This document shows positions 29,839 through 48,647 of a stretch of DNA of 64,000 nucleotides, one piece after another. A model generated the notes under the pieces. The model searched no databases and had not been told where the DNA came from. It saw only the letters and a list, made by a program, of their open reading frames with translations. The stretch is from Escherichia coli (GTDB lineage Bacteria; Pseudomonadota; Gammaproteobacteria; Enterobacterales; Enterobacteriaceae). Each line of letters begins with the position of its first letter. The stretch's first letter is position 1. The DNA lies in NCBI RefSeq assembly GCF_013315695.1, contig NZ_CP054353.1; one strand, 5' to 3'. Made by a program: the position numbers and the translations under genes.

Positions 29839-30031
29839 TTTGTACTTTCTTGTCTCCTCTGTTCATAATTCAAACCGTAACTAATAATGAGATTATGTTC
29901 TGCACGCCCTGGGTATACGTAACAATGGACAAATGTGGTACATTTGCCCGCGTTGTCGCGGTATCCCCAACAGAGGATGTAGAGTCGTCTTCGGATGCAT
30001 GGGATGATGATGCCGTTTTTCAGGGGGCAGG

Positions 30032-30343
30032 ATGGGTAAACTAACGCTGCTGTTGCTGGCTATTCTGGTCTGGCTACAGTATTCGCTGTGGTTCGGTAAG
30101 AACGGTATACATGACTATACCCGCGTCAATGATGATGTGGCGGCACAGCAAGCTACAAACGCGAAACTTAAAGCGCGAAACGATCAACTTTTTGCCGAAA
30201 TTGACGATCTCAATGGCGGCCAGGAGGCGCTCGAAGAGCGTGCGCGTAATGAACTCAGCATGACCAGGCCGGGCGAAACTTTTTATCGTCTGGTGCCTGA
30301 CGCGTCGAAGCGCGCACAGTCTGCGGGGCAAAACAATCGATAA
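30032..30343 (+). CDS. ftsB: Cell division protein FtsB
   Basis: 103-aa [28 protein letters not shown]... with TM anchor plus coiled coil. Confidence 0.9.
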
Positions 30344-30361
30344 ATCAGCCCAGGAATTAAC

Positions 30362-31072
30362 ATGGCAACCACTCATTTGGATGTTTGCGCCGTGGTTCCG
30401 GCGGCCGGATTTGGCCGTCGAATGCAAACGGAATGTCCTAAGCAATATCTCTCAATCGGTAATCAAACCATTCTTGAACACTCGGTGCATGCGCTGCTGG
30501 CGCATCCCCGGGTGAAACATGTCGTCATTGCCATAAGTCCTGGCGATAGCCGTTTTGCACAACTTCCTCTGGCGAATCATCCACAAATCACGGTTGTTGA
30601 TGGTGGTGAAGAGCGTGCCGATTCCGTGCTGGCAGGTCTGAAAGCCGCTGGCGACGCGCAGTGGGTATTGGTGCATGACGCCGCTCGTCCTTGTCTGCAT
30701 CAGGATGACCTCGCGCGATTGTTGGCGTTGAGCGAAACCAGCCGCACGGGGGGGATCCTCGCCGCACCAGTGCGCGATACGATGAAACGTGCCGAACCGG
30801 GCAAAAATGCCATTGCTCATACCGTTGATCGCAACGGCTTATGGCACGCGCTGACGCCGCAATTTTTCCCTCGTGAGCTGTTACATGACTGCCTGACGCG
30901 CGCTCTAAATGAAGGCGCTACCATTACCGACGAAGCCTCGGCGCTGGAATATTGCGGATTTCATCCGCAGTTGGTCGAAGGCCGCGCGGATAACATTAAA
31001 GTCACGCGCCCGGAAGATTTGGCACTGGCCGAGTTTTACCTCACCCGAACCATCCATCAGGAGAATACATAA
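30362..31072 (+). CDS. ispD: 2-C-methyl-D-erythritol 4-phosphate cytidylyltransferase
   Basis: 236-aa ORF; [11 protein letters not shown] motif; forms an operon with ispF. Confidence 0.9.
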
Positions 31073-31551
31073 TGCGAATTGGACACGGTTTTGACGTACA
31101 CGCCTTTGGCGGTGAAGGCCCAATTATCATTGGTGGCGTACGCATTCCTTACGAAAAAGGATTGCTGGCGCATTCTGATGGCGATGTGGCGCTCCATGCG
31201 TTGACCGATGCATTGCTTGGCGCGGCGGCGCTGGGGGATATCGGCAAACTGTTCCCGGATACCGATCCGGCATTTAAAGGTGCCGACAGCCGCGAGCTGC
31301 TACGCGAAGCCTGGCGTCGTATTCAGGCGAAGGGTTATACCCTTGGCAACGTCGATGTCACTATCATCGCTCAGGCACCGAAGATGTTGCCGCACATTCC
31401 ACAAATGCGCGTGTTTATTGCCGAAGATCTCGGCTGCCATATGGACGATGTTAACGTGAAAGCCACTACTACGGAAAAACTTGGATTTACCGGACGTGGG
31501 GAAGGGATTGCCTGTGAAGCGGTGGCGCTACTCATTAAGGCAACAAAATGA
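31072..31551 (+). CDS. ispF: 2-C-methyl-D-erythritol 2,4-cyclodiphosphate synthase
   Basis: 159-aa [16 protein letters not shown]...; start overlaps the ispD stop. Confidence 0.9.
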
Positions 31552-32577
31552 TTGAGTTTGATAATCTCACTTACCTCCACGGTAAACCGCAAGGCACCGG
31601 GCTGCTGAAAGCCAATCCGGAAGACTTTGTGGTGGTGGAAGATTTGGGCTTTGAGCCTGATGGTGAAGGTGAGCATATTCTGGTTAGAATCCTCAAAAAC
31701 GGCTGCAATACCCGTTTTGTGGCGGATGCACTGGCGAAATTCCTGAAAATTCATTCCCGTGAAGTCAGCTTCGCTGGGCAAAAAGACAAACATGCTGTTA
31801 CGGAACAGTGGTTATGCGCTCGCGTGCCGGGCAAAGAGATGCCCGATCTGAGCGCCTTTCAACTGGAAGGCTGCCAGGTGCTGGAGTATGCGCGGCACAA
31901 GCGCAAGCTGCGTTTAGGCGCGCTGAAAGGTAACGCCTTTACCCTGGTTCTGCGCGAAGTGAGCAATCGCGATGACGTTGAACAACGTCTGATCGATATT
32001 TGCGTAAAAGGTGTACCGAACTACTTCGGTGCCCAACGTTTTGGGATTGGCGGTAGCAACTTGCAGGGCGCGCTGCGCTGGGCGCAAACCAATACTCCGG
32101 TGCGCGATCGCAATAAACGGAGTTTTTGGTTGTCGGCAGCCCGCAGTGCGTTGTTTAATCAGATTGTTGCTGAGCGCCTCAAAAAAGCAGACGTTAATCA
32201 AGTTGTTGACGGCGATGCGCTACAATTAGCCGGACGTGGTAGCTGGTTTGTCGCAACCACCGAAGAACTGGTGGAATTACAGCGTCGCGTCAACGATAAA
32301 GAGCTGATGATAACCGCCGCATTGCCGGGCAGTGGCGAATGGGGAACTCAGCGTGAAGCGCTGGCATTCGAACAAGCAGCTGTCGCCGCAGAAACTGACT
32401 TACAAGCCTTACTGGTGCGCGAAAAAGTTGAAGCCGCGCGCAGAGCGATGCTGCTGTATCCGCAACAATTAAGCTGGAACTGGTGGGATGACGTCACCGT
32501 AGAAATCCGTTTCTGGCTTCCGGCGGGTAGTTTTGCAACCAGCGTTGTCAGGGAACTTATCAACACAACAGGTGATT

Positions 32578-32597
<20 letters not shown>
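31548..32597 (+). CDS. truD: tRNA pseudouridine(13) synthase
   Basis: 349-aa ORF; overlaps the ispF stop and the surE start. Confidence 0.9.
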
Positions 32598-33959
<1,362 letters not shown>

Positions 33960-34098
33960 AACGTGAGGAAATACCTGGATTTTTCCTGGTTATTTTGCCG
34001 CAGGTCAGCGTATCGTGAACATCTTTTCCAGTGTTCAGTATGGTGCCTTGCACGGTAATTATGTCACTGGTTATTAACCAATTTTTCCTGGGGGATAA

Positions 34099-35238
34099 AT
34101 GAGCGCGGGAAGCCCAAAATTCACCGTTCGCCGCATTGCGGCTTTGTCACTGGTTTCGCTATGGCTGGCAGGCTGTTCTGACACTTCAAATCCACCGGCC
34201 CCGGTCAGCTCCGTTAATGGCAATGCGCCTGCAAATACCAATTCTGGTATGTTGATTACGCCGCCGCCGAAAATGGGGACGACGTCTACAGCGCAGCAAC
34301 CGCAAATTCAGCCGGTACAGCAGCCACAAATTCAGGCCACTCAACAACCGCAAATCCAGCCGGTGCAGCCAGTAGCTCAGCAGCCGGTACAGATGGAAAA
34401 CGGACGCATCGTCTATAACCGTCAGTATGGGAACATTCCGAAAGGCAGTTATAGCGGCAGTACCTATACAGTGAAAAAAGGCGACACACTTTTCTATATC
34501 GCCTGGATTACTGGCAACGATTTCCGTGACCTTGCTCAGCGCAACAATATTCAGGCACCATACGCGCTGAACGTCGGTCAGACCTTACAGGTGGGGAATG
34601 CTTCCGGTACGCCAATCACTGGCGGAAATGCCATTACCCAGGCCGACGCAGCAGAGCAAGGAGTTGTGATCAAGCCTGCACAAAATTCCACCGTTGCTGT
34701 TGCTTCGCAACCGACAATTACGTATTCTGAGTCTTCGGGTGAACAGAGTGCTAACAAAATGTTGCCGAACAACAAGCCAACTGCGACCACGGTCACAGCG
34801 CCTGTAACGGTACCAACAGCAAGCACAACCGAGCCGACTGTCAGCAGTACATCAACCAGTACGCCTATCTCCACCTGGCGCTGGCCGACTGAGGGCAAAG
34901 TGATCGAAACCTTTGGCGCTTCTGAGGGGGGCAACAAGGGGATTGATATCGCAGGCAGCAAAGGACAGGCAATTATCGCGACTGCAGATGGCCGCGTTGT
35001 TTATGCCGGTAACGCGCTGCGCGGCTACGGTAATCTGATTATCATCAAACATAATGATGATTACCTGAGTGCCTACGCCCATAACGACACAATGCTGGTC
35101 CGGGAACAACAAGAAGTGAAGGCGGGGCAAAAAATAGCAACCATGGGTAGCACCGGAACCAGTTCAACACGCTTGCATTTTGAAATTCGTTACAAGGGGA
35201 AATCCGTAAACCCGCTGCGTTATTTGCCGCAGCGATAA
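34099..35238 (+). CDS. nlpD: Murein hydrolase activator lipoprotein NlpD (LysM plus M23 domains)
   Basis: 379-aa ORF with lipoprotein signal (LAGCS), a Q/P-rich repeat region, a LysM segment and a C-terminal M23 peptidase-like domain. Confidence 0.9.
34285..34395 (+). repeat. In-frame tandem repeat inside nlpD encoding QQPQIQP(V/A) units
   Basis: About 3.5 near-identical 24-nt units (cagcaaccgcaaattcagccggta...) visible directly in the sequence. Confidence 0.5.
34700..34735 (+). promoter_or_regulatory. Major rpoS promoter located inside nlpD
   Basis: TTGCTT-N17-TATTCT (34700-34705 and 34723-34728) places the transcription start about 566 nt upstream of the rpoS ATG, matching the known long rpoS 5' UTR. 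Confidence 0.6.
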
Positions 35239-35300
35239 ATCGGCGGAACCAGGCTTTTGCTTGAATGTTCCGTCAAGGGATCACGGGTAGGAGCCACCTT

Positions 35301-36293
35301 ATGAGTCAGAATACGCTGAAAGTTCATGATTTAAATGAAGATGCGGAATTTGATGAGAACGGAGTTGAGGTTTTTGACGAAAAGGCCTTAGTAGAAGAGG
35401 AACCCAGTGATAACGATTTGGCCGAAGAGGAACTGTTATCGCAGGGAGCCACACAGCGTGTGCTGGACGCGACTCAGCTTTACCTTGGTGAGATTGGTTA
35501 TTCACCACTGTTAACGGCCGAAGAAGAAGTTTATTTTGCGCGTCGCGCACTGCGTGGAGATGTTGCCTCTCGCCGCCGGATGATCGAGAGTAACTTGCGT
35601 CTGGTGGTAAAAATTGCCCGCCGTTATGGCAATCGTGGTCTGGCGTTGCTGGATCTTATCGAAGAGGGCAACCTGGGGCTGATCCGCGCGGTAGAGAAGT
35701 TTGACCCGGAACGTGGTTTCCGCTTCTCAACATACGCAACCTGGTGGATTCGCCAGACGATCGAACGGGCGATTATGAACCAAACCCGTACTATTCGTTT
35801 GCCGATTCACATCGTAAAGGAGCTGAACGTTTACCTGCGAACCGCACGCGAGTTGTCCCATAAACTGGACCATGAACCAAGTGCGGAAGAGATCGCAGAG
35901 CAACTGGATAAGCCAGTTGATGACGTCAGCCGTATGCTTCGTCTTAACGAGCGCATTACCTCGGTAGACACCCCGCTGGGTGGTGATTCCGAAAAAGCGT
36001 TGCTGGACATCCTGGCCGATGAAAAAGAGAACGGTCCGGAAGATACCACGCAAGATGACGATATGAAGCAGAGCATCGTCAAATGGCTGTTCGAGCTGAA
36101 CGCCAAACAGCGTGAAGTGCTGGCACGTCGATTCGGTTTGCTGGGGTACGAAGCGGCAACACTGGAAGATGTAGGTCGTGAAATTGGCCTCACCCGTGAA
36201 CGTGTTCGCCAGATTCAGGTTGAAGGCCTGCGCCGTTTGCGCGAAATCCTGCAAACGCAGGGGCTGAATATCGAAGCGCTGTTCCGCGAGTAA
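35301..36293 (+). CDS. rpoS: RNA polymerase sigma factor RpoS (sigma-S/sigma-38)
   Basis: 330 aa starting [21 protein letters not shown]...; sigma-70 family regions 2-4; the track ORF from 35265 is over-extended. Confidence 0.95.
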
Positions 36294-36310
36294 GTAAGCA
36301 TCTGTCATAA

Positions 36311-36345
36311 AGGCCAGTCTCTTATGAGGCTGGCCTTTTTCTTTT
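36311..36345. terminator. rpoS intrinsic terminator (possibly bidirectional)
   Basis: AGGCCAGTCT-CTTATG-AGGCTGGCCT hairpin followed by TTTTTCTTTT. Confidence 0.6.
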
Positions 36346-36413
36346 GTATGGGGAGTTGGTGTGTTTCGTCGCCTGGATAAGACACGTCAGCGTCCCATCC
36401 GGCAATCAACATC

Positions 36414-36821
36414 CTATTTGCTCATCATCTTGCGCACCAGCTGCATAAACAGCTCCTGCTCTTCTCCACTCAAACGCCCCAAAAATTCCTCATCCACACT
36501 GTCGCCAATCGGTATCGCCGCAGCAAGTACCTTTTCTCCTTCGGCAGTCAGCCAGACAAAGCGTCGCCGCTTATCAGCGGCGTCATGTTCACGTCTGACT
36601 AAGCCACGATTTTCCATTCTTGCCAACATTTCTGCCAGCGTTGCTTTGGTGCTGACTGCTGCTTCTATCAGTGCCACCTGTTCGATACCAGGCTTATCAG
36701 CAATGGCGCGCATCACCGCGTACTGTGGTTTGGTCAGGTCAGGTAACTCGTGCTGCCAGCGGGCCGTATGCTGCTGAAAAAGCTGTCGTAACTGATGGAA
36801 CGCTTTATTTCGTAACGCCAT
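36414..36821 (-). CDS. hosA: MarR/SlyA-family transcriptional regulator
   Basis: 135-aa ORF with a winged-helix MarR fold (TKPQYAVMRAIADKPGIEQVALIEAAVSTKATLAEMLARMENRGLV); divergent from the decarboxylase genes. Symbol from memory of the E. coli rpoS-mutS variable region. Confidence 0.75.
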   Translation of the reverse strand: MALRNKAFHQLRQLFQQHTARWQHELPDLTKPQYAVMRAIADKPGIEQVALIEAAVSTKATLAEMLARMENRGLVRREHDAADKRRRFVWLTAEGEKVLAAAIPIGDSVDEEFLGRLSGEEQELFMQLVRKMMSK

Positions 36822-36936
36822 GTAAACTCCGGGCTAATTCTCTGTCGCTATCATAGCGGTTTTTCAGTGACGAAGAAGATGTTGTTACTTTTCAATCCTT
36901 GCCGCTGTGGAAATGAAGGAGTATGTTAATAATAAC

Positions 36937-36950
36937 GTTCGTATACGAAC
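36937..36950. promoter_or_regulatory. Perfect 14-bp palindrome, candidate MarR-family operator
   Basis: GTTCGTATACGAAC lies 18 bp upstream of the ecdB start codon in the hosA/ecdB divergent region. Confidence 0.4.
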
Positions 36951-36967
36951 AATTAAGAGAGTAAGCA

Positions 36968-37561
36968 ATGAAACTGATCGTCGGGATGACAGGGGCTACC
37001 GGTGCGCCTCTTGGTGTGGCATTACTGCAAGCGCTGCGGGAGATGCCGAATGTCGAGACTCATCTGGTGATGTCGACGTGGGCGAAAACCACCATTGAAC
37101 TGGAAACGCCTTACAGCGCTCGCGATGTTGCTGCCCTCGCAGACTTCAGCCATAACTCGGCGGATCAGGCGGCGACCATCTCCTCAGGTTCCTTTCGTAC
37201 CGACGGCATGATCGTTATTCCGTGCAGTATGAAAACGCTCGCCGGTATCCGTGCCGGTTACGCCGATGGCCTGGTAGGGCGCGCGGCGGACGTCGTGCTC
37301 AAAGAAGGCCGCAAACTGGTGCTGGTGCCGCGTGAAATGCCGCTTAGCACCATCCATCTCGAAAATATGCTCGCACTTTCGCGCATGGGCGTGGCGATGG
37401 TGCCGCCGATGCCTGCCTTTTATAACCATCCCGAAACGGTAGATGACATTGTCCAGCACGTGGTAGCCCGCGTGCTGGATCAATTTGGCCTCGAACATCC
37501 TCACGCCAGGCGCTGGCAAGGATTGTCGCAGACCCGGAATTTTTCTCAGGAGAATGAATAA
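36968..37561 (+). CDS. ecdB: UbiX-like flavin prenyltransferase (prenyl-FMN synthase), decarboxylase subunit B
   Basis: 197-aa ORF MKLIVGMTGATGAPLGV... with UbiX/Pad1 flavoprotein signature. Confidence 0.85.
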   Translation: MKLIVGMTGATGAPLGVALLQALREMPNVETHLVMSTWAKTTIELETPYSARDVAALADFSHNSADQAATISSGSFRTDGMIVIPCSMKTLAGIRAGYADGLVGRAADVVLKEGRKLVLVPREMPLSTIHLENMLALSRMGVAMVPPMPAFYNHPETVDDIVQHVVARVLDQFGLEHPHARRWQGLSQTRNFSQENE

Positions 37562-38988
37562 TGGCATTTGATGATTTACGCAGCTTTTTACAGGCGCTCG
37601 ACGACCATGGGCAATTGCTGAAAATCAGCGAAGAGGTGAACGCAGAACCGGATCTGGCAGCCGCAGCCAACGCCACCGGGCGTATCGGCGACGGCGCGCC
37701 AGCGCTGTGGTTTGATAATATTCGCGGCTTTACCGATGCCCGCGTGGCGATGAACACCATCGGTTCCTGGCAGAACCACGCGATTTCCCTCGGCCTGCCG
37801 CCAAATACCCCGGTTAAAAAACAGATCGATGAGTTTATCCGCCGCTGGGACAACTTCCCGATTGCCCCGGAACGCCGAGCCAATCCAGCCTGGGCGCAGA
37901 ACACCGTCGATGGAGACGAGATCAACCTGTTCGATATCCTGCCGCTGTTTCGTTTAAACGATGGCGATGGCGGTTTCTATCTCGACAAAGCGTGCGTGGT
38001 TTCCCGCGATCCGCTTGATCCGGATAACTTCGGCAAGCAGAACGTCGGTATCTACCGCATGGAAGTGAAGGGCAAACGTAAGCTCGGCCTGCAACCGGTG
38101 CCGATGCACGATATCGCCCTGCATCTGCATAAAGCGGAAGAGCGCGGTGAAGATCTGCCGATTGCGATCACCCTCGGTAACGATCCGATCATCACGCTGA
38201 TGGGGGCCACGCCGCTGAAATATGATCAGTCCGAGTACGAAATGGCAGGCGCGCTGCGTGAAAGCCCGTACCCGATCGCCACCGCCCCGCTGACTGGTTT
38301 TGATGTGCCGTGGGGTTCAGAAGTGATCCTCGAAGGGGTTATCGAAAGTCGTAAACGTGAGATCGAAGGGCCGTTCGGTGAGTTTACCGGCCACTACTCC
38401 GGTGGGCGCAACATGACCGTGGTGCGCATCGATAAAGTCTCTTACCGCACGAAACCGATTTTCGAATCGCTGTACCTCGGCATGCCGTGGACGGAAATCG
38501 ACTATCTGATGGGGCCAGCCACCTGCGTGCCGCTGTATCAGCAACTGAAAGCCGAGTTCCCGGAAGTGCAGGCGGTGAACGCCATGTACACCCACGGCCT
38601 GCTGGCGATTATCTCCACCAAAAAACGCTACGGTGGCTTTGCCCGCGCGGTGGGCCTGCGTGCGATGACCACGCCGCACGGTCTGGGCTATGTGAAGATG
38701 GTGATTATGGTCGATGAAGACGTTGATCCGTTCAACCTGCCGCAGGTGATGTGGGCGCTCTCCTCGAAAGTGAACCCGGCAGGGGATTTGGTGCAGTTGC
38801 CGAATATGTCCGTGCTGGAACTCGACCCAGGCTCAAGCCCGGCGGGGATCACCGACAAGCTGATTATCGACGCCACCACGCCTGTCGCCCCGGACAACCG
38901 TGGTCACTACAGTCAGCCGGTGGTGGATTTACCGGAAACCAAAGCCTGGGCTGAAAAACTGACCGCTATGCTGGCCGCACGTCAATAA
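37561..38988 (+). CDS. ecdC: UbiD-family (prenyl-FMN-dependent) aromatic acid decarboxylase subunit C
   Basis: 475-aa UbiD-family ORF; start overlaps the ecdB stop. Confidence 0.85.
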   Translation: MAFDDLRSFLQALDDHGQLLKISEEVNAEPDLAAAANATGRIGDGAPALWFDNIRGFTDARVAMNTIGSWQNHAISLGLPPNTPVKKQIDEFIRRWDNFPIAPERRANPAWAQNTVDGDEINLFDILPLFRLNDGDGGFYLDKACVVSRDPLDPDNFGKQNVGIYRMEVKGKRKLGLQPVPMHDIALHLHKAEERGEDLPIAITLGNDPIITLMGATPLKYDQSEYEMAGALRESPYPIATAPLTGFDVPWGSEVILEGVIESRKREIEGPFGEFTGHYSGGRNMTVVRIDKVSYRTKPIFESLYLGMPWTEIDYLMGPATCVPLYQQLKAEFPEVQAVNAMYTHGLLAIISTKKRYGGFARAVGLRAMTTPHGLGYVKMVIMVDEDVDPFNLPQVMWALSSKVNPAGDLVQLPNMSVLELDPGSSPAGITDKLIIDATTPVAPDNRGHYSQPVVDLPETKAWAEKLTAMLAARQ

Positions 38989-38998
38989 GGAGAACAAG

Positions 38999-39235
38999 AT
39001 GATTTGTCCACGTTGTGCTGATGAACAGATTGAAGTGATGGCGAAATCGCCGGTAAAAGATGTCTGGACGGTCTACCAGTGCCAGCATTGCCTCTATACC
39101 TGGCGCGATACCGAACCGCTGCGCCGCACCAGCCGCGAACATTATCCCGAAGCGTTCCGCATGACGCAGAAAGATATTGATGACGCGCCGATGGTGCCGA
39201 GCATCCCGCCGCTGCTGGCGGAAGGTAAGCGCTAA
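38999..39235 (+). CDS. ecdD: Small zinc-ribbon decarboxylase subunit D
   Basis: 78-aa ORF with CPRC...CQHC cysteine pairs; last gene of the ecdBCD-type operon. Confidence 0.75.
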   Translation: MICPRCADEQIEVMAKSPVKDVWTVYQCQHCLYTWRDTEPLRRTSREHYPEAFRMTQKDIDDAPMVPSIPPLLAEGKR

Positions 39236-39240
39236 ATAAA

Positions 39241-39268
39241 AGGTCCGATGCCCATCGGACCTTTTTAT
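39241..39268. terminator. Bidirectional terminator between convergent ecdD and ygbN
   Basis: AAAA-GGTCCGATG-cc-CATCGGACC-TTTTT: 9-bp stem flanked by A and T runs. Confidence 0.6.
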
Positions 39269-39273
39269 TAAGG

Positions 39274-40638
39274 TCAAATTACCGCCCATACGCACCAGGT
39301 AATTAAGAATCCGGTAAAACCGAGAATGGTCGTTAACACTGTCCAGGTTTTCAGACCGTCTGCTACCGACAACCCCAGATATTTGGTCACAATCCAGAAC
39401 CCTGAGTCATTAATATGTGACGCGCCAAGCCCACCAAAGCAGGCTGCCAGCGTCACCAATACGCACTGAATCGGATTCAATCCCATCACCGCTTCTGAGA
39501 GTAACCCGCCGGTTGTCAGGATTGCTACGGTTGCTGACCCCTGCGATGCACGCAGCGCCAGTGAAATAATAAATGCGGCTGGTAACAGAGGCAGGTCAAT
39601 CATTTGTAGCATGTTGGCAAGGGCTTTGCCGACGCCCGATTCCACCAGCACTTTGCCAAATACCCCTCCAGCACCAGTAACCAAAATCACTACCGCCGCG
39701 GTGGGAAGGGCTGAGCCCATAATGTCGCTGGTGTGTTGTAAGCTCCAGCCGCGACGTAAAGCCAATAACCAGAATGCCAGCACCAGCGCAATCATTAGAG
39801 CTACCATTGGTGAGCCGATCAGCTGTAGCGTACCAAGCAGGGGATGCGAAGGCGGCATCAGTGTTGCGGAAACCGTACCCGCCATGATAATCGCGATAGG
39901 AATAACAATTAGCGAGGTGACCAGCGCGACGCCCGGTGGATTTATTTTATCGCTTAATTTTGTCGCGCCTTCCTCACTGGCCGGAGCCAGTTGCATCTGT
40001 TCCAGTACTTCCACCGACATCGCATATTGGCGCTTATTGATTATTTTCGCTGCAAAGTAGCCAACAATCCCTACGGGAATAGAAATCGCAATACCGATGA
40101 TGGTTAGCCAGCCGATGTCTGCGTGGAGTAACCCCGCTGCGGCGACAGGGCCTGGATGCGGCGGTACCGCCACATGAACAGTTAGCATGATTCCAGCGAC
40201 AGGCAGGCCAAATTTGAGTGGCGATATTTTGGCAACCTTGGCAAAACCGTAAATGATTGGCGCAAGAATAATAAAGCCGACATCAAAGAAGACGGGGATA
40301 CCGAGGAAGAACGCTGCCAGAGTCAGCGCAGCGATAGTTCGTTTGTCACCTAACTTGCGACTGAAATAATTAGCCAGTGACTCTGCACCACCAGAGTGTT
40401 CGATCATACGCCCCAGCATAGCGCCCAGACCAATAATAATAGTGACGGAACCAAGCACACCGCCCATCCCGGCGATCATCACTTTACCCACTTCGCCCGC
40501 CGGTATACCCGCCGCAAGTGCGACTAACAGGCTGACGAGGAGCAGAGCAACGAATGGTTGTACCTTTGCCTTGATGACCAGCAGCAACAGCATGATTACG
40601 CCAGTTAACGCAATGCATAACAATGTAATTGTGGACAT
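39274..40638 (-). CDS. ygbN: GntP-family permease
   Basis: 454-aa hydrophobic ORF with GntP-family topology; first gene of the minus-strand ygbJKLMN cluster. Confidence 0.85.
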   Translation of the reverse strand: MSTITLLCIALTGVIMLLLLVIKAKVQPFVALLLVSLLVALAAGIPAGEVGKVMIAGMGGVLGSVTIIIGLGAMLGRMIEHSGGAESLANYFSRKLGDKRTIAALTLAAFFLGIPVFFDVGFIILAPIIYGFAKVAKISPLKFGLPVAGIMLTVHVAVPPHPGPVAAAGLLHADIGWLTIIGIAISIPVGIVGYFAAKIINKRQYAMSVEVLEQMQLAPASEEGATKLSDKINPPGVALVTSLIVIPIAIIMAGTVSATLMPPSHPLLGTLQLIGSPMVALMIALVLAFWLLALRRGWSLQHTSDIMGSALPTAAVVILVTGAGGVFGKVLVESGVGKALANMLQMIDLPLLPAAFIISLALRASQGSATVAILTTGGLLSEAVMGLNPIQCVLVTLAACFGGLGASHINDSGFWIVTKYLGLSVADGLKTWTVLTTILGFTGFLITWCVWAVI

Positions 40639-40726
40639 GGGAAACCCTGTCTGAAAGTTATAGTTAACCTACCCCATCCGTAGATGGGGGGATGTATGGG
40701 TACGTTGTAATTAGGGATTTAACGAA

Positions 40727-41503
40727 TTAGCGCCAGGCGTCAAACCAGCCAAGCCCTTCTTCGGTGAGGCCACGAGGTTTATATTCACAACCGATCCAGC
40801 CCTGATATCCCACCTCATCGAACAGGCGGAACAGCCACGGATAGTTGATTTCTCCATCGTCCGGTTCATGTCGATCAGGTAGTCCGGCAATTTGTACGTG
40901 CGCATATTTCCCGGCGTAGTCGCGGATTAAATGCGTCAGGTTGCCATCTACTTTTTGCGCATGAAAAGTATCTAGTTGAATAAACACGTTATCTCGCGCA
41001 ACTTCTTCAACAATAGCCAGTGCCTGATACTGGCTGGAGAAGAGATAATGAGGCTTAACGCCGGGGCTGAGTGCTTCAACTAATATTCGCTTGCCGTGTG
41101 GCGCAAAGCGGTCGGCAGCGTAGCGGAGATTATCGATAAATACTGCCCTGTACCGTTCAGCATCTTCGCCAGCGGGCACGACGCCTGCCATCACATGGAC
41201 TTGTTCACAATTGAGCGCCAATGCATATTCCAGTGCCAGGTCGATGTCTGCGTGTGCTTCGTGCTCACGTCCGGGAAGGGCGGATAATCCCCATTCCCCC
41301 GCATTAATATCTCCGGGAGCGGTATTGAACAGCGCCAGTGTCAGATGGTTTTGCTCCAGTTGCTTTTGGATTTGCAGGGTGGAGTAGTTATAGGGAAACA
41401 GAAATTCCACAGCATCGAACCCGGCTTTTCGCGCTGCGGCGAAGCGTTCAATAAAAGGCACTTCGGTGAACATCATGGATAAATTAGCTGCAAAACGAGG
41501 CAT
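40727..41503 (-). CDS. ygbM: Hydroxypyruvate isomerase-like TIM-barrel isomerase (2-oxo-tetronate isomerase type)
   Basis: 258-aa [32 protein letters not shown]..., xylose-isomerase-like fold. Confidence 0.8.
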
Positions 41504-41507
41504 TGCA

Positions 41508-42146
41508 TTAACTCCTTAATTCCGCAATTTCACCTGCGGTCAGATAACGGATCGGGCGGTCACCGAGAATAAAAATCAGCTTTGCCGTTTCCTCCAGCTC
41601 TTCCATATTGTTGGCGGCTTCTTGCAGGCTTTCACCGCAAACCACTGGGCCATGATTTGCCAGTAAAAAAGCCTGATTGTCTGCTGCCAGTTCCGCCAGA
41701 TCCTGTGCGATGCGTTTATCGCCCGGTCGGTAATAAGGCACCAGCGGGATATTTCCCATCCGCATCACCACGTATGGTGTGAACGGACGAATAACGTTGC
41801 TGCTGTCCAGCCCTTGCAGGCAGGAAAGCGCCGTCGACCATGTGCTGTGCAAATGCACCACCGCTTTACAGCGCGGATTGTTGCGATACAGCGCCAGATG
41901 AAAGAGCACCTCTTTCGAGGGTTTGTCACCACTTAACCATTCGCCATCCGCGGCGACTTTGGAAAGCCGCTGCGGATCGAGATTGCCCAGGCATGAACCT
42001 GTCGGTGTCGCCAGTAAATTCCCGTCAGGTAAAAGCAGCGACAGATTGCCAGCCGAACCGGTTGCATAGCCGCGCTGAAAGAATGAACTGGCAATCCGCG
42101 TCATCTCCTCTCGCAAAGACTGCTCTACTTTTGCGAAATCGCTCAT
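41508..42146 (-). CDS. ygbL: Class II aldolase/adducin-family protein (3-oxo-tetronate 4-phosphate decarboxylase type)
   Basis: 212-aa ORF in the class II aldolase family; overlaps the ygbK stop. Confidence 0.8.
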
Positions 42147-43405
42147 GATAAAAACTCTCTTTGGGCTCGTGAAAAAAAGGCTTCATCACCGAAGTTGCCA
42201 GATTTAAGGGCGAGTGAGACAGGCTTATCCAGTGCGTTTACCCACGGCACGCCAGGGGAAATGGTTGGGCCAATATGAAACCCTTTTATTCCCAGGCTCT
42301 GTGTGACTACGCCGGAGGTCTCACCGCCTGCGACAATAAAGCGTGTCACGCCTTCCGCTGCTAACCGCGCCGCTAGTTGAGAAAACAGTGTTTCTACTGC
42401 CTGACTGGCTTTTTGTGCACCGTATTGCTGTTGAATTGCTGCCAATGCGTCAGTGCTTGCGGTGGCAAAAACCAGTGGAGCAAGTACACTTTCCTGGCCC
42501 AGAACCCACTCTGCCAGTTCGTGTGCATAAGCGGCCAGAGTTTCAATTGAGAGGCAGCGTGCCACATCAACTTCACGGGCTGGTGCAATTTGACGGTAAT
42601 GTGCTACCTGGCGGTTGGTCATTTGAGAGCATGAACCGGAGAGCACTACGCCGCGCCCAGCGAGCGGATGCCCTGCTTTGCGAGCCTGGTTACCGTTTTC
42701 TTGCGCCCACTGCCGGGCAAGGCCAATCGCCAGACCAGAACCGCCCGTTACCAGTGGGGCATCGCGCAAGGCTTCTCCCTGAATTTCCAGATGGTATTCG
42801 GTCAGCGCATCAAGCACCGCGTAGCGGTAGCCCTCTTGCTGTAAGCGAGCCAGCTCTTGACGAACGGCATCCACACCTTGTTCGAAAACATGTGCCGAAA
42901 CGACGCCGCAGCGCCCTGTGGATTGCGCTTCAACCAGACGGGGAAGATAGCTGTCGGTCATGGGATTTACCGGGTGATGGCGCATCCCGGATTCGGCCAG
43001 CAGTTGATTCATTACGAACAAATACCCCTGATAAACCGTACGTCCGTTGACCGGCAGGGCCGGAGAGAAGACCGTAAACGGCGTGTCGAGAGCATCCATT
43101 AATGCATCGGTAACCGGGCCGATATTACCTTTCGCCGTACTGTCGAAAGTAGAGCAGTATTTGAAATAGATCTGTTTGCAACCTTGCTGTTGCAACCAGC
43201 TCAGAGCCGCCAGCGATTGCTGTGTGGCTTCAACCACCGGACAGGAACGCGTTTTCAGGCTGATCACCAGTGCGTCGATTGCTTCCGGCATTTTACCTGT
43301 TGGAACACCGTTAATTTGTACCGTTGGTAGACCGTTTTCCACCAGAAAACTGGCGATATCCGTCGCGCCGGTAAAATCATCGGCGATAACGCCAATCTTG
43401 ATCAT
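42143..43405 (-). CDS. ygbK: Four-carbon acid sugar kinase (3-oxo-tetronate kinase type)
   Basis: 420-aa ORF MIKIGVIADDFTGATD... (DUF1537/DUF2090-type kinase); ATGA overlap with ygbJ. Confidence 0.8.
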   Translation of the reverse strand: MIKIGVIADDFTGATDIASFLVENGLPTVQINGVPTGKMPEAIDALVISLKTRSCPVVEATQQSLAALSWLQQQGCKQIYFKYCSTFDSTAKGNIGPVTDALMDALDTPFTVFSPALPVNGRTVYQGYLFVMNQLLAESGMRHHPVNPMTDSYLPRLVEAQSTGRCGVVSAHVFEQGVDAVRQELARLQQEGYRYAVLDALTEYHLEIQGEALRDAPLVTGGSGLAIGLARQWAQENGNQARKAGHPLAGRGVVLSGSCSQMTNRQVAHYRQIAPAREVDVARCLSIETLAAYAHELAEWVLGQESVLAPLVFATASTDALAAIQQQYGAQKASQAVETLFSQLAARLAAEGVTRFIVAGGETSGVVTQSLGIKGFHIGPTISPGVPWVNALDKPVSLALKSGNFGDEAFFSRAQREFLS

Positions 43406-44310
43406 GATTTCGCTCCCGGTAGAGTGATGCCAGAGAAAATCTTGATAACTGCGCTATCGTCTTCTTTCCCGTAACCCGCGTTACTGGCGCTGGTGAACAT
43501 ATTCAATGCTGTTGAGGCCAATGGCAGCGGGAAGTGCAGGGCTTTGGCTGTATCGGCAACCAGACCAAGATCCTTAACAAAAATATCGACGGCTGAATGC
43601 GGGGTGTAATCGCCATCCACCACATGACGCATCCGGTTTTCGAACATCCAGGAATTTCCGGCGGCATTGGTCACGACGTCATACATCACATCCAGCGGGA
43701 TCCCCGCACGGGCTGCAAGTGCCATCGCTTCGGCTCCGGCAGCAATATGTACGCCCGCTAACAACTGGTGAATAATTTTTACGGTCGAACCTGGTCCCGG
43801 TTCTGCACCTATGCGATAAACTTTTCCGGCAACGGCTTCCAGCACGGGTGCCAGTCGTTCAAAGGCAATATCGCTACCGGAGGCCATGACAGTCATTTCA
43901 CCGTTAGCGGCTTTTACTGCACCACCAGAAACTGGCGCATCCAGCATTTCCAGATCGAATCCAGCCAGAGCGGTAGCAATTTCTTGCGCATCAGCACTAG
44001 CGATAGTGGAAGAAACCATTACTGCCGTACCGGGTTTCAGATGTTGTGCAACGCCTGTTTCACCAAACAGCACCTGTTTAACCTGGGCCGCATTGACCAC
44101 CAGCACCAGCAGAGCGTCCAGTTTTTCGGCAAACGTCGCGGCGTTATCAGAAACCCCGCAAGCACCTGCCTCTTTCAACGTAGCGCAGGCATTGCTGTTC
44201 AGGTCTGCGCCCCAGGTAGAAAGACCTGCGCGGACACATGACAGTGCTGCTCCCATTCCCATTGACCCTAAGCCAACGATACCGACATGAAACTCAGATC
44301 CCGTTTTCAT
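43402..44310 (-). CDS. ygbJ: NAD-dependent 3-hydroxyisobutyrate dehydrogenase-family enzyme (L-threonate dehydrogenase type)
   Basis: 302-aa ORF with N-terminal Rossmann motif VGIVGLGSMGMGAA. Confidence 0.85.
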   Translation of the reverse strand: MKTGSEFHVGIVGLGSMGMGAALSCVRAGLSTWGADLNSNACATLKEAGACGVSDNAATFAEKLDALLVLVVNAAQVKQVLFGETGVAQHLKPGTAVMVSSTIASADAQEIATALAGFDLEMLDAPVSGGAVKAANGEMTVMASGSDIAFERLAPVLEAVAGKVYRIGAEPGPGSTVKIIHQLLAGVHIAAGAEAMALAARAGIPLDVMYDVVTNAAGNSWMFENRMRHVVDGDYTPHSAVDIFVKDLGLVADTAKALHFPLPLASTALNMFTSASNAGYGKEDDSAVIKIFSGITLPGAKS

Positions 44311-44381
44311 CTGCTCTCCTTGTTAATTTAAGTGATATTTTGTTTGATATTGTGAATATAAGCGCTGGAAGATAACGATAT

Positions 44382-44397
44382 GGTGAGCTGATTCACA
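44382..44397. promoter_or_regulatory. CRP-like site in the ygbJ/ygbI divergent region
   Basis: GGTGAGCTGATTCACA matches TGTGA-N6-TCACA with one mismatch; additional TGTGAA motifs at 44351 and 44423 may be DeoR-type operator repeats. Confidence 0.3.
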
Positions 44398-44475
44398 AAA
44401 ATTAACATTGTGTGTTATTTTATGTGAACTAAGCGTTAGTTGCGCCGCGCACGTTTCGCAGGCAAATAGCGTAGA

Positions 44476-45273
44476 ATGTCAGCAGGACAAAGGAAGGAGC
44501 AAAAGTTGATACCCGTAGAGCGTCGCCAAATCATCCTTGAGATGGTAGCTGAAAAAGGCATTGTCAGTATTGCTGAACTAACGGACAGAATGAATGTGTC
44601 ACATATGACCATTCGTCGGGATTTACAAAAACTGGAGCAGCAGGGAGCCGTTGTGCTGGTGTCCGGAGGCGTCCAGTCTCCGGGACGCGTGGCGCATGAA
44701 CCTTCTCATCAGGTAAAAACTGCGCTGGCAATGACGCAAAAAGCGGCTATTGGCAAGCTGGCGGCAAGTCTTGTTCAGCCGGGAAGTTGTATCTATCTGG
44801 ATGCGGGAACGACCACGCTAGCGATAGCACAGCATCTGATTCACATGGAGTCACTGACTGTGGTCACAAACGATTTCGTTATTGCGGACTACTTGCTCGA
44901 CAACAGTAATTGCACAATTATTCACACTGGCGGTGCAGTGTGTCGGGAAAACCGTTCCTGTGTCGGGGAAGCCGCTGCGACCATGCTGCGCAGCCTGATG
45001 ATTGATCAGGCTTTTATTTCTGCATCGTCATGGAGTGTGCGGGGGATTTCTACGCCAGCGGAAGATAAAGTCACGGTGAAACGGGCGATTGCCAGTGCCA
45101 GCCGCCAGCGAGTTTTGGTCTGTGATGCGACGAAATATGGTCAGGTGGCGACATGGCTGGCGTTACCATTAAGCGAGTTTGATCAGATTATTACAGACGA
45201 CGGTTTGCCGGAGAGTGCCAGTCGCGCGCTGGCGAAGCAGGATCTCTCTTTGCTGGTAGCGAAAAATGAATAA
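44476..45273 (+). CDS. ygbI: DeoR-family transcriptional regulator
   Basis: N-terminal HTH (SIAELTDRMNVSHMTIRRDL) plus DeoR C-terminal sensor domain; an alternative TTG start 10 codons downstream (MIPVERRQ...) follows a GGAGG-like RBS. Confidence 0.8.
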   Translation: MSAGQRKEQKLIPVERRQIILEMVAEKGIVSIAELTDRMNVSHMTIRRDLQKLEQQGAVVLVSGGVQSPGRVAHEPSHQVKTALAMTQKAAIGKLAASLVQPGSCIYLDAGTTTLAIAQHLIHMESLTVVTNDFVIADYLLDNSNCTIIHTGGAVCRENRSCVGEAAATMLRSLMIDQAFISASSWSVRGISTPAEDKVTVKRAIASASRQRVLVCDATKYGQVATWLALPLSEFDQIITDDGLPESASRALAKQDLSLLVAKNE

Positions 45274-45295
45274 TGGCCTGCAATAACACCGGGTT

Positions 45296-45321
45296 ACTCA
45301 TGCTTCACAGAAGAAGCATGA
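45296..45321. terminator. Hairpin between convergent ygbI and pphB
   Basis: CTCATGCTTC-ACAGAA-GAAGCATGAG, a 10-bp perfect stem, followed by TTTATTTT. Confidence 0.5.
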
Positions 45322-45323
45322 GA

Positions 45324-45980
45324 CTACTTTATTTTATAAAATGACAGCCGCCCGCTTTTCGGCGATCCGGTATCAATATAAATCTGGTTAGCGAACGTCT
45401 GAGTGTTATCAAACATCATATGACCAAATATAAAGAAGTCGGCACCGTTTATTTTTTGTAATTCGCTATTAAGTGATTTCTGCACACGATCAACAGGCCA
45501 GAGTAATTCGCTCTCCGCTATTTCTTTGCCAAACTGATACTCCTTCCCCGGATAATCTGCATGTGCGATGACATATTTTATGTTGTCGTTAGTGATTTCA
45601 ATAATATGTGGAAGGTGATGAAATTTCAGCAACAGATCTATTGCCGCTTGTTGCTCTGAATCATTTAAATCGAAAAACCAGTCACCACCGCTGGCAAGCC
45701 ACATATTTCCATCGCCAGTTTCGAATGCATCCAACGCCATCGCTTCGTGGTTGCCTTTAACCGACGTAAACCAGGGCTGGTTTAACAGGCGTAGCACGTT
45801 AAGACTCTCCGGCCCACGATCAATGTTGTCGCCGACAGAAATAAGTAAGTCTTTTTCGGGGCAAAAAGAGCGTTGATGTAAGCGGGATTGTAATAATTGA
45901 TAGTCACCATGAATATCACCAACGGCCCATATATGGCGATAGTGATGGGCATTGATTTTTTGATAGCGTGTAGATGGCAT
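45324..45980 (-). CDS. pphB: Serine/threonine protein phosphatase 2 (PPP family metallophosphatase)
   Basis: 218-aa ORF with GDIHGD and GNHE metallophosphatase motifs. Confidence 0.85.
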   Translation of the reverse strand: MPSTRYQKINAHHYRHIWAVGDIHGDYQLLQSRLHQRSFCPEKDLLISVGDNIDRGPESLNVLRLLNQPWFTSVKGNHEAMALDAFETGDGNMWLASGGDWFFDLNDSEQQAAIDLLLKFHHLPHIIEITNDNIKYVIAHADYPGKEYQFGKEIAESELLWPVDRVQKSLNSELQKINGADFFIFGHMMFDNTQTFANQIYIDTGSPKSGRLSFYKIK

Positions 45981-46085
45981 GGTTTTACCCTGTAAAATAA
46001 GATTTCCTATTATACAGGGTATTTTTATTTGATTCGTCAGTTGTCGTTAATATTCCCGATAGCAAAAGACTATCGGGAATTGTTA

Positions 46086-48647
46086 TTACACCAGACTCTT
46101 CAAGCGATAAATCCACTCCAGCGCCTGACGCGGAGTCAGTGAATCCGGGTCGAGGTTTTCCAGTGCCTCGACCGCAGGCGAAGTTTCTTCTGGTACGGAC
46201 AGCAAAGACATCTGCGTGCCATCCACTTGCGTAGCGGCGGCGTTCGGCGAAATGCTTTCCAGCTCACGCAGTTTTTGCCGTGCGCGCTTAATCACCTCTT
46301 TTGGCACGCCCGCCAGAGCAGCAACCGCCAGGCCGTAGCTTTTGCTCGCCGCGCCGTCCTGTACGCTGTGCATAAAGGCGATGGTGTCGCCGTGCTCCAG
46401 CGCATCGAGGTGCACGTTAGCCACGCCTTCCATTTTCTCCGGCAGTTGAGTCAGCTCGAAGTAATGGGTGGCAAACAACGTCAATGCCTTAATCTTATTC
46501 GCCAGATTTTCAGCGCACGCCCACGCCAGCGACAGACCATCGTAAGTGGACGTTCCACGCCCAATCTCATCCATCAACACCAGGCTGTACTCCGTGGCGT
46601 TATGCAGAATATTGGCGGTTTCGGTCATCTCCACCATAAAGGTTGAACGCCCGGATGCCAGATCGTCAGCCGCGCCCACACGGGTAAAGATACGGTCAAT
46701 CGGGCCAATCTCGACTTTTTGCGCCGGTACGTAGCTGCCGATATAGGCCATCAGCGCAATCAGTGCGGTCTGGCGCATATAGGTACTTTTACCGCCCATG
46801 TTCGGACCGGTGATGATCAACATGCGACGCTGCGGCGACAGGTTCAGCGGGTTAGCGATAAACGGCTCATTCAGTACCTGTTCAACTACCGGATGGCGAC
46901 CTTCGGTAATGCGAATACCCGGTTTATCAATGAAGGTCGGGCAGGTGTAGTTCAGGGTATAGGCCCGTTCCGCCAGGTTCACCAGTACGTCGAGTTCTGC
47001 CAGTGCGCTCGCGCTCTGTTGCAACGTTTCCAGATGCGGCAACAGCAGGTCGAACAACTCTTCATAAAGCTGTTTTTCCAGTGCCAGTGCTTTACCTTTC
47101 GAGGTGAGTACTTTGTCTTCATACTCTTTTAGCTCTGGAATAATGTAGCGTTCGGCGTTTTTCAGCGTCTGGCGACGCATATAGTTGATGGGTGCCAGAT
47201 GGCTTTGTCCACGGCTGATCTGAATGTAATAACCATGAACCGCGTTAAAGCCGACTTTCAGCGTGTCCAGGCCAGTACGTTCACGCTCGCGGACTTCCAG
47301 ACGCTCCAGATAATCGGTCGCGCCGTCAGCCAGCGCGCGCCACTCATCCAGCTCTTCGTTATAGCCCGGTGCGATAACACCACCGTCGCGTACCAGCACT
47401 GGCGGTGTGTCGATGATTGCTCGCTCCAGCAGATCGCGCAGCTCGGCAAACTCGCCCATTTTTTCACGCAGCGCCTGTACCGGAGCGCTATCGACATTTT
47501 CTAATAGTGCACGCAGCTCCGGCAGTTGCTGGAAAGCGTGACGCATACGGGCCAGATCGCGTGGGCGAGCAGTTCGTAAAGCCAGACGCGCCAGAATACG
47601 TTCCAGGTCGCCGACCTGACGCAGTACCGGCTGCAGCTCGGCGGTGAAATCCTGCAATGCGCCAATAGTTTGCTGGCGCTCAAGCAACACGCGGGTATCG
47701 CGCACTGGCATATGCAGCCAGCGTTTCAGCATACGGCTGCCCATCGGCGTGACGGTGCAGTCGAGCACAGAAGCCAGCGTATTTTCCGCACCACCCGCCA
47801 GATTCTGGGTGATTTCCAGGTTACGACGCGTCGCGGCATCCATAATGATGCTGTCCTGCTCACGTTCCATAGTGATAGAACGAATATGCGGCAGGGTCGT
47901 GCGTTGGGTATCTTTCGCATATTGCAACAGACAACCGGCGGCACAAAGTCCGCGCGGTGCGTTCTCGACGCCAAAACTGACCAGATCGCGAGTGCCAAAT
48001 TGCAGGTTTAACTGCTGGCGCGCGGTGTCGATTTCAAACTCCCACAGCGGGCGACGACGCAGGCCGCGGCGACCTTCAATCAGCGACATCTCGGCGAAAT
48101 CTTCCGCATACAGTAATTCCGCTGGATTCGTACGTTGCAGTTCTGCCGCCATCGTTTCGCGGTCCGCCGGTTCGCTCAGGCGAAAACGACCGGAACTGAT
48201 ATCCAGCGTTGCGTAGCCGAAACCTTTACTGTCCTGCCAGATAGCCGCCAGCAGGTTGTCCTGACGTTCCTGCAACAGTGCTTCATCGCTGATGGTGCCC
48301 GGCGTAACGATACGGACAACTTTGCGCTCGACCGGCCCTTTGCTGGTCGCTGGATCGCCAATTTGTTCGCAGATGGCAACGGACTCGCCCTGGTTCACCA
48401 GTTTGGCGAGGTAGTTTTCCACCGCATGGTAGGGAATCCCCGCCATCGGGATTGGCTCTCCCGCTGAAGCACCGCGTTTGGTCAGTGAAATATCCAGCAG
48501 TTGCGACGCCCGTTTTGCGTCGTCATAAAACAGTTCATAAAAGTCGCCCATCCGGTAAAACAGCAGGATCTCGGGATGCTGGGCTTTCAGCTTGAGATAT
48601 TGCTGCATCATGGGCGTATGGGCATCGAAATTTTCTATTGCACTCAT
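46086..48647 (-). CDS. mutS: DNA mismatch repair protein MutS
   Basis: 853-aa ORF with Walker [10 protein letters not shown] and the MutS domain series. Confidence 0.95.

Follow-up and report, generated by a model that had tools for sequence, protein, structure and literature searches.

The segment at positions 36340–39234 of the Escherichia coli DNA stretch analysed here (64,000 nucleotides, hereafter the window) is very probably the ancestral hosA-ecdBCD locus, which encodes a 4-hydroxybenzoate (4-HBA)-responsive repressor and a prenyl-FMN (prFMN)-dependent decarboxylase operon, and K-12 would have reached its present arrangement by deletion. The locus, which is also named slyA/hosA-pad1-yclC and kpdBCD/vdcBCD, is already known; it has been genetically described since 2000. 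In the present analysis, we determined its gene identities, operator, boundaries, distribution and synteny. The features of the locus and its flanks are as follows:

36309–36345, plus strand: rpoS intrinsic terminator, with a 13-bp stem, a 4-nt loop and a T-run; left edge of the K-12-shared sequence
36340–39234, no strand: variable block (the '2.9-kb segment'), from blastn against JM83, comparison with MG1655 and the literature
36414–36821, minus strand: hosA, MarR/SlyA-family repressor, probably 4-HBA-responsive (PDB 8AGA match; MarR-family NCBIfam matches)
36822–36967, no strand: divergent hosA/ecdB control region, from the sequence
36937–36950, no strand: predicted HosA operator, a perfect 14-bp palindrome (match to the oligonucleotides of PMC6261655 table S1)
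36968–37561, plus strand: ecdB (pad1/kpdB/vdcB), probable UbiX-type flavin prenyltransferase, the putative prFMN maker (NF041206, PDB 1SBZ)
37561–38988, plus strand: ecdC (yclC/kpdC/vdcC), probable UbiD-family prFMN-dependent decarboxylase, catalytic subunit (NF041204, PDB 7AE4_A)
38999–39235, plus strand: ecdD (kpdD/vdcD), probable Cys4 zinc-ribbon activator subunit of 78 aa (NF041205, ShVdcD alignment)
39238–39267, both strands: bidirectional hairpin terminator, serving ecdD (plus) and ygbN (minus) (folding; K-12-shared flank)
39274–40638, minus strand: ygbN (o454), GntP-family transporter, right flank outside the block (NF007332, 827 bits)

The block is 2,895 bp in length and, according to the ORF list, contains four intact genes: hosA on the minus strand, and ecdB, ecdC and ecdD on the plus strand. 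The initial annotation had placed a MarR-family gene and UbiX-like, UbiD-like and Cys-rich ORFs between rpoS and ygbN at these same positions; the family-model scores agree with its view of a MarR/SlyA regulator that is divergent from a UbiX/UbiD/zinc-ribbon operon. The ecdBCD genes are laid out as an operon: ecdB and ecdC overlap by 1 nt, the 10-nt gap between ecdC and ecdD carries AAGGAG, and a terminator is located 3′ of ecdD.

On the left side, the 3′ end of rpoS is at 36293; the terminator hairpin (36309–36338, followed by the T-run) folds with a ΔG of −23.1 kcal/mol and a z of −6.5. As revealed by blastn against JM83, the K-12 homology ends at 36339 and restarts at 39235, and K-12 has ∼8 bp instead (CTGTGCAC). 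In MG1655, ygbN directly adjoins rpoS and the block is absent, so the alignments confirmed that K-12 lacks the block, as the initial annotation had stated. The hairpin on the right side has ΔG values of −16.6 and −17.1 kcal/mol on the two strands and a z of about −5; it was overlooked by the terminator scan because its stem consumes the T-run, and folding then confirmed it. Of the two terminators that had been named as the bounds of the segment, the right one falls outside the variable block, in the K-12-shared flank, where it is the ygbN terminator. The G+C content is 56–59% within the block and 50–53% in the flanks.

Among 80 loci of other species, which cover roughly 20 genera, 56 show linkage of the cluster to rpoS and/or mutS (both genes in 43 loci, rpoS only in 8 and mutS only in 5); one of them is from an Escherichia sp. 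outside E. coli (locus L007). A frequent arrangement is rpoS-hosA-ecdBCD-mutS, with no other genes between. In many loci, mutS lies only 280–380 bp past the end of ecdC, therefore there is space for ecdD alone. We found no direct or inverted repeats at the block edges (36340 and 39234), no tRNA genes within 30000–50000, and no integrase or transposase ORFs in the block, which holds four genes only. Taken together, the rpoS/mutS synteny in other species and the lack of mobility hallmarks indicated that the block is ancestral. Owing to its absence beside the cluster in other genera, ygbN is the newcomer, and ygbN-pphB is a lineage-specific addition to the rpoS-mutS interval.

The initial annotation had offered a different history, in which an accessory island, here taken as horizontally acquired by pathogenic lineages, would have inserted between rpoS and ygbN. 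K-12 has no block, the allelic divergence is raised within it, and its G+C content (56–59%, compared to about 52% in the flanks) points superficially to a foreign origin, as does a preprint that argues for acquisition of hosA from Shigella. However, an inserted island does not agree with the rpoS/mutS linkage of the same cluster in those 56 loci, including that of the Escherichia sp., with edges and surroundings free of repeats, tRNA genes and mobility genes, with the occurrence of the block in 44% of complete genomes from hosts of all kinds, or with the missing ygbN beside the cluster in other genera. We consider this history very unlikely. According to the ancestral reading, the block would be original content of the Enterobacteriaceae rpoS-mutS interval; the strain analysed here would have kept both the block and the ygbN-pphB genes ('pattern IV'), whereas K-12 and phylogroup A would have lost the block through a clean deletion.

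As assigned initially, the locus belongs to the polymorphic rpoS-mutS region, in agreement with the literature: the block corresponds to the '2.9-kb segment' of the mutS-rpoS region of Herbelin et al. 2000, as relayed in PMC5491219 and PMC4209514, and the block with ygbN downstream is 'pattern IV' of Ewers et al. 2014 (the known system being 'pattern I/IV'). The association with pathogenic lineages did not hold. Since the block was found in 2,378 of 5,426 complete E. coli genomes, it is not pathogen-specific, and the carriers include fish, yak, calf and cat isolates; what it marks is E. coli lineages other than A and B2, not pathogens as such. O157 has the block; the B2-type genomes sampled (H25–H29) have a different cassette at the site, with a flavodoxin and an MBL-fold hydrolase. 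The allele in the window is rare, with at least 99% identity in only 14 of 5,414 matching genomes. As a separate observation, four E. coli block alleles differ from each other by 4–5% inside the block and by <1% in both flanks.

The differences in ecdC are nearly all synonymous (dN/dS of 0.012); its dS is 0.23, compared to 0.035 for rpoS. Between Pseudocitrobacter vendiensis and E. coli, ecdC and ecdD are 94% identical, whereas rpoS is 89% and hosA is 70% identical. Across genera, the median amino acid identity of EcdC is 97%, higher than the 93% of MutS. It is possible, although we think it rather unlikely, that the block is a local nucleotide-diversity peak and a site of interspecies homologous exchange, perhaps enabled by the extreme conservation of ecdC. 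If true, the strong conservation of EcdC would suggest a role more central than occasional phenolic-acid detoxification. Import of the window allele from Pseudocitrobacter, whose EcdC protein is 100% identical, was considered and rejected, because the DNA identity is 94.3%, compared to 95–96.6% to other E. coli alleles, and hosA and ecdB are E. coli-like. One match in a Citrobacter MAG (L006; 100% for HosA and EcdC) is most likely a mis-binned E. coli contig, because another copy in this MAG (L011) is Citrobacter-like.

The three operon products match the VdcBCD family models. EcdB scored 311.5 bits with NF041206 (VdcB; cut-off 290) and 246.7 with TIGR00421 (cut-off 108.9), and it aligns with PDB 1SBZ over residues 1–197 (E 9e-125). 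EcdC scored 790.8 bits with NF041204 (VdcC; cut-off 650), and its full-length alignment with ShVdcC (PDB 7AE4_A) covers residues 3–471 (E 2e-160). Both the NVG.YR ('NVGiYR') and EGPFGEF stretches are conserved in this alignment; we take them to be the E-R-E triad, by reference to R173/E277/E282 of Fdc1. EcdD scored 121 bits with NF041205 (VdcD; cut-off 30). Its C3, C6, C28 and C31 form two CXXC knuckles, in register with the Zn ligands of ShVdcD (7AE4_a; E 3e-11); different from ShVdcD, EcdD has a 6-residue insertion (LRRTSR). VdcC depends on VdcD, a Zn-ribbon protein (C3/C6/C28/C31) by which the loops with the ERE catalytic motif are stabilised (PMC8379154). The B, C and D genes are adjacent and co-oriented in this order, which is the order of a VdcBCD/EcdBCD/KpdBCD/BsdBCD non-oxidative hydroxyarylic acid decarboxylase.

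The initial annotation held that the substrate was not evident. HosA binds 4-HBA in the published work on its near-identical relatives, however, and the VdcCD homologues catalyze reversible, oxygen-sensitive decarboxylation of 4-HBA and vanillate (PMC8379154), which points to these acids for the window locus as well. We extrapolate the activity of EcdBCD from its homologues in Klebsiella, Enterobacter, Bacillus and Sedimentibacter, and we infer that the present allele is active. In the literature searched, we found no paper that assayed EcdBCD from E. coli directly.

An alternative is that EcdB and EcdC back up UbiX and UbiD in ubiquinone biosynthesis, acting on 3-octaprenyl-4-hydroxybenzoate; in its favour, EcdC is a paralogue of UbiD (E 7e-47 to E. 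coli UbiD) and is unusually conserved (median 97% amino acid identity versus 93% for MutS). However, EcdC reached only 174.1 bits with the UbiD equivalog NF008175 (cut-off 788) and 203 with the menaquinone decarboxylase model (cut-off 496), and a free phenolic acid as substrate agrees with the dedicated soluble D subunit and with a repressor that responds to 4-HBA; a back-up function is highly improbable. White et al. (2015) reportedly established that UbiX forms prFMN and does not itself decarboxylate, and this counts against EcdB (pad1) being the decarboxylase. Although that assignment is repeated in PMC5491219 and in the title of PDB 1SBZ ('Probable aromatic acid decarboxylase'), we give it almost no credence, as later structures of close homologues are all named flavin prenyltransferase UbiX/PAD1, EcdB exceeds the cut-offs of the VdcB and UbiX-family prenyltransferase models, and ecdB is paired genetically with a VdcC-type UbiD plus a VdcD subunit, not with an Fdc1-type enzyme.

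HosA of the window is identical to the crystallised EPEC HosA (PDB 8AGA, 'Transcriptional regulator HosA') at 132 of 134 residues; the two differences, A119G and N134S, are conservative and C-terminal. The ligand-site residues F15 and D110 are present; their roles are taken from the preprint that claims a Shigella origin of hosA. In the control region, the palindrome GTTCGTATACGAAC is located 17 nt 5′ of the ecdB start codon and occurs only once in the 64 kb window. The site and its flanks (TAATAATAAC...AATTAAGAGA) match the UMN026 HosA binding-site oligonucleotides of PMC6261655 table S1. Most of these oligonucleotides read GTTTCGTATACGAAC, with one extra T, whereas the perfect 14-mer of the window is found in one of them. 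A scan of 36000–39600 for consensus sigma-70 promoters found none at 9/12 or better. By eye, one weak candidate (8/12) for ecdB could be recognized, TTGCCG (36899–36904) and TATGTT (36922–36927) with a 17-nt spacer; because this sole candidate is weak and below the scan threshold, we only infer the ecdB promoter.

EMSA and ITC data on HosA (KD 4.7 μM) are given in PMC6261655, and release of the UMN026 protein from DNA by 4-HBA was reported as well (PMC6261655; bioRxiv 10.1101/2024.04.24.590444); the latter source also summarises repression and autoregulation. In the following scheme, the ligand and the repression, as well as the chemistry of the enzyme and the function of the D subunit, are adopted from such literature on near-identical or homologous proteins. 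A MarR-type HosA dimer would sit on the palindrome just 5′ of ecdB and repress ecdBCD and hosA itself. Upon binding of 4-HBA, HosA would leave the DNA and the operon would be derepressed. EcdB, as a UbiX-type enzyme, would prenylate FMN to give prFMN; hexameric EcdC of the UbiD type, kept active by the zinc-ribbon subunit EcdD, would then use prFMN to convert 4-HBA to phenol in a reversible, non-oxidative reaction. Vanillate and similar phenolic acids are likely to be accepted by EcdC as well.

As a discovery, the locus carries little weight: seven PDB entries exist for HosA, 4-HBA biosensors make use of it, and the mechanism of the enzyme class is solved. The value of the analysis lies in its corrections, namely that the block is ancestral, that the substrate and inducer are known, and that the block is a lineage marker, not a pathogen marker. 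The system is of relevance for the formation of phenol from 4-HBA and parabens in the gut, and the locus is usable as a typing marker of the mutS-rpoS region.

Among the known systems, hosA-pad1-yclC of E. coli O157:H7 and EPEC has the same genes, order and rpoS-adjacent position as the window locus. The DNA identity of the block to this system is 95–96.5%. Compared to O157, EcdC is ∼100% identical in amino acids (rounded; pN 0.0028), EcdD is identical, and HosA and EcdB are 96% and 97% identical, respectively. In O157, pphB-mutS follows directly after the block and the ygb genes are absent, whereas ygbN is located downstream here. The HosA proteins of EPEC O127:H6 and UPEC UMN026 (8AGA plus six further PDB entries; Roy & Ranjan 2016) match the present one at 132 of 134 residues. 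Sedimentibacter hydroxybenzoicus VdcCD, Bacillus subtilis BsdBCD/VdcBCD and Klebsiella KpdBCD have in common with EcdBCD the B-C-D operon, the UbiD-type C subunit, the Zn-ribbon D subunit (CXXC...CXXC) and the requirement for prFMN. The Firmicute VdcCD enzymes are more distant from EcdCD (E 2e-160 for ShVdcC and 3e-11 for ShVdcD); different from the Firmicute VdcBCD/BsdBCD systems, the HosA regulator is Enterobacterales-specific. Like EcdB and EcdC, UbiX and UbiD of ubiquinone biosynthesis belong to the same two protein families and follow the same cofactor logic, in which the prFMN made by UbiX is used by UbiD; however, EcdBCD has an extra D subunit, and it probably acts on soluble substrates and is induced by 4-HBA.

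The hosA-ecdBCD block lies between rpoS and ygbN. hosA encodes a MarR/SlyA-family regulator, and ecdB, ecdC and ecdD encode the UbiX-type, UbiD-type and Cys4 zinc-ribbon proteins, homologous to VdcB, VdcC and VdcD, respectively. Judged by the ORF list, by folding and by G+C content (56–59% within the block, 50–53% outside), the gene content and positions described in the initial annotation are accurate. The features are:

34099–35238, nlpD (ORF list)
end at 36293, rpoS (ORF list)
36309–36338 plus T-run, rpoS terminator (fold of −23.1 kcal/mol)
36414–36821, minus strand, hosA, 135-aa ORF (ORF list)
36968–37561, plus strand, ecdB, 197-aa ORF (ORF list)
37561–38988, plus strand, ecdC, 475-aa ORF, its start sharing one base with the ecdB stop (ORF list)
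38999–39235, plus strand, ecdD, 78-aa ORF (ORF list)
39238–39267, hairpin (fold of −16.6/−17.1 kcal/mol)
39274–40638, minus strand, ygbN, 454 aa (ORF list)

The folding energies of the rpoS terminator and the 39238–39267 hairpin are far beyond those of shuffled controls. Further along, ygbM (40727–41503) is named 'HPr family phosphocarrier protein' by RefSeq PGAP, compared to putative 2-oxo-tetronate isomerase in MG1655; the PGAP name is probably a propagated misannotation.

Homology to the K-12 derivative JM83 extends up to 36339 and resumes at 39235, and the variable block is therefore 36340–39234, 2,895 bp in length. Between the matching positions JM83 carries only 'CTGTGCAC', and in MG1655 rpoS likewise directly abuts ygbN; both lack hosA-ecdBCD at this site, confirming the proposed absence from K-12. 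Of the two terminators proposed to bound the block, both fold, but the right-hand hairpin also exists in K-12, as the terminator of ygbN; it is flanking sequence common to both strains and lies outside the block. Aligned with the B2-type locus of E. coli Combat2C1 (L003), homology ends at 36346 and restarts only at 39286, so that this variant also lacks the hairpin; at the same site, it carries an alternative cassette (L003, 2595–4733) of one flavodoxin-family gene and one MBL-fold metallo-hydrolase gene. In O157:H7, the block is present and is followed directly by pphB-mutS.

The gene assignments were right as well, as indicated by NCBIfam scores and PDB matches. Against the curated cut-offs for the B, C and D subunits of non-oxidative hydroxyarylic acid decarboxylase (290, 650 and 30), EcdB, EcdC and EcdD score 311.5, 790.8 and 121, respectively, and all pass. 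Identity as the ubiquinone-pathway UbiD was rejected, the equivalog model giving 174 against a cut-off of 788. EcdB matches PDB 1SBZ (E. coli O157:H7 'Pad1'; E 9e-125), and the homologous structures later than 1SBZ are all named flavin prenyltransferase UbiX. The nearest solved relative of EcdC is Sedimentibacter hydroxybenzoicus VdcC (7AE4; E 2e-160), with which it keeps the NVG.YR and EGPFGEF stretches; C3, C6, C28 and C31 are in register between EcdD and VdcD of the same organism.

The initial annotation took the block for an inserted accessory island. To place it, we scanned for EcdC using one genome per species, which gave 80 loci, and identified the neighbours by tblastn of the adjoining proteins. 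The cluster is linked to both rpoS and mutS at 43 loci, to rpoS only at 8 and to mutS only at 5; in several one-sided cases, contig ends cut the locus. Linked clusters occur in genera including Citrobacter, Pseudocitrobacter, Kluyvera, Klebsiella, Enterobacter, Leclercia, Lelliottia, Kosakonia, Atlantibacter, Franconibacter, Mangrovibacter, Cedecea and Pluralibacter, and in an Escherichia species other than E. coli. At many loci, the mutS end lies just 280–380 bp past the ecdC end, leaving space for ecdD alone, and outside E. coli YgbN was never seen beside the cluster at the scanned loci. A search for island hallmarks found neither repeats flanking the block nor any tRNA or mobility genes. 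With this linkage across genera, the block is not an inserted island. In the simplest history, the order nlpD-rpoS-hosA-ecdBCD-mutS is ancestral, pphB and the ygb (otn) genes were added later between ecdD and mutS in Escherichia, and the block later underwent deletion in the lineages of K-12 and phylogroup A and replacement in B2. Such a history fits the title of Herbelin et al. 2000, 'Gene conservation and loss...'.

Several loci vary in arrangement. Within the mutS-rpoS interval, the cluster is inverted relative to both genes in Phytobacter (L019, L048 and L050) and in Salmonella enterica subsp. diarizonae and arizonae (L023 and L025), with rpoS on the opposite strand ∼300 bp past ecdC-ecdD. 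In Enterobacter, Lelliottia, Leclercia and Klebsiella species, the rpoS-to-ecdC gap can be ∼3.8 kb rather than ∼1.25 kb, reflecting an additional ∼2.5 kb that separates rpoS from hosA (L010, L020, L021, L022, L028, L031, L041, L045 and L061). Some species of Cedecea, Pluralibacter, Chimaeribacter, Rahnella, Erwinia, Siccibacter and Superficieibacter, as well as Mangrovibacter phragmitis, have hosA-ecdC-ecdD without adjoining ecdB (L043, L053, L054, L063, L064, L068, L073, L074, L076, L077, L082 and L084); there, prFMN presumably comes from the housekeeping ubiX. The Citrobacter sp. MAG HRGM_Genome_0066 has two cluster copies, one whose 6-kb contig encodes E. coli-like proteins (L006; HosA 100%, MutS 99%) and one Citrobacter-like (L011; HosA 77%); the bin probably includes an E. 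coli contig.

The region is present over at least 80% of its length in 2,378 (44%) of the complete E. coli genomes (n = 5,426), from hosts including humans, calf, yak, fish, cat and chicken. The block, which had been ascribed to pathogenic lineages, marks lineage and not pathogenicity. The ecdD-ygbN junction of the window, pattern IV of Ewers et al. 2014, occurs in 1,592 of the carriers; the other ∼786 have O157-like or different arrangements. The window allele itself is rare, with at least 99% identity over 36200–39400 in only 14 of 5,414 matching complete genomes; the closest, strain MSB1_4I from a human rectal swab in Australia, reaches 100%, and identity is already down to 96.7% in the next match sampled.

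When the window is compared with other E. coli in 200-bp steps, identity is 99–100% in both flanks and 91–98% inside the block. Four E. coli alleles (the window, L002, L085 and L086) differ mutually by 3.5–4.7% in the block (36340–39234) and by 0.3–1.0% in the flanks (33200–36339 and 39235–42400), and the step at the block boundaries is sharp. Against O157, ecdC has a dS of 0.227 and a dN/dS of 0.012, its differences being nearly all synonymous, whereas the dS of rpoS is 0.035. In Pseudocitrobacter vendiensis (L005, 8001–10400), ecdC and ecdD share 94% DNA identity with the E. coli alleles, compared to 89% for rpoS, 82% for ecdB and 70% for hosA. This contrast points to exchange between genera, and on sequence comparison the ecdCD-pphB segment of L005 looks like a recombinational import. 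A pphB homologue (90% amino-acid identity) follows ecdCD in L005; P. faecalis (L009) lacks pphB. In the literature, the mutS-rpoS region is described as a known recombination hot spot. Across Enterobacteriaceae genera (L008–L062), the median amino-acid identity of EcdC is 97% (range 92–99%), and among the proteins compared only RpoS exceeds it (99%); MutS, EcdD, EcdB, NlpD and HosA follow at 93%, 91%, 87%, 75% and 73%, respectively.

The hosA-ecdBCD locus is already known in detail. The minus-strand HosA shares 132 of 134 residues with the crystallised HosA (8AGA), for which six further PDB entries exist. One perfect palindrome, GTTCGTATACGAAC, lies at 36937–36950 in the hosA/ecdB intergenic region; it occurs once in the window, and its flanks agree with the HosA binding-site oligonucleotides of PMC6261655, which reports EMSA and ITC with a KD of 4.7 μM. 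For HosA of UPEC UMN026, a preprint (bioRxiv 10.1101/2024.04.24.590444) describes repression of the decarboxylase operon and of its own gene, a palindromic site downstream of the transcription start, and induction of the operon when 4-hydroxybenzoate frees HosA from DNA. By analogy with this near-identical protein, the HosA of the window would repress ecdBCD and hosA until relieved by 4-hydroxybenzoate. A direct assay of the E. coli EcdBCD enzyme was not found in the literature searched. The initial annotation, although its observation and gene assignments held, was wrong on insertion and also on the substrate, which it called not evident; the literature on the HosA ligand and the VdcCD substrates makes that statement outdated. 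VdcC has no activity unless VdcD is present; VdcD is a Zn ribbon and sits beside the loops bearing the catalytic ERE motif, and the VdcCD holoenzyme is a prFMN-dependent, oxygen-sensitive hexamer acting on 4-hydroxybenzoate and vanillate (PMC8379154). Transferred from these homologues, prFMN-dependent decarboxylation would be the predicted activity of EcdBCD in the window.
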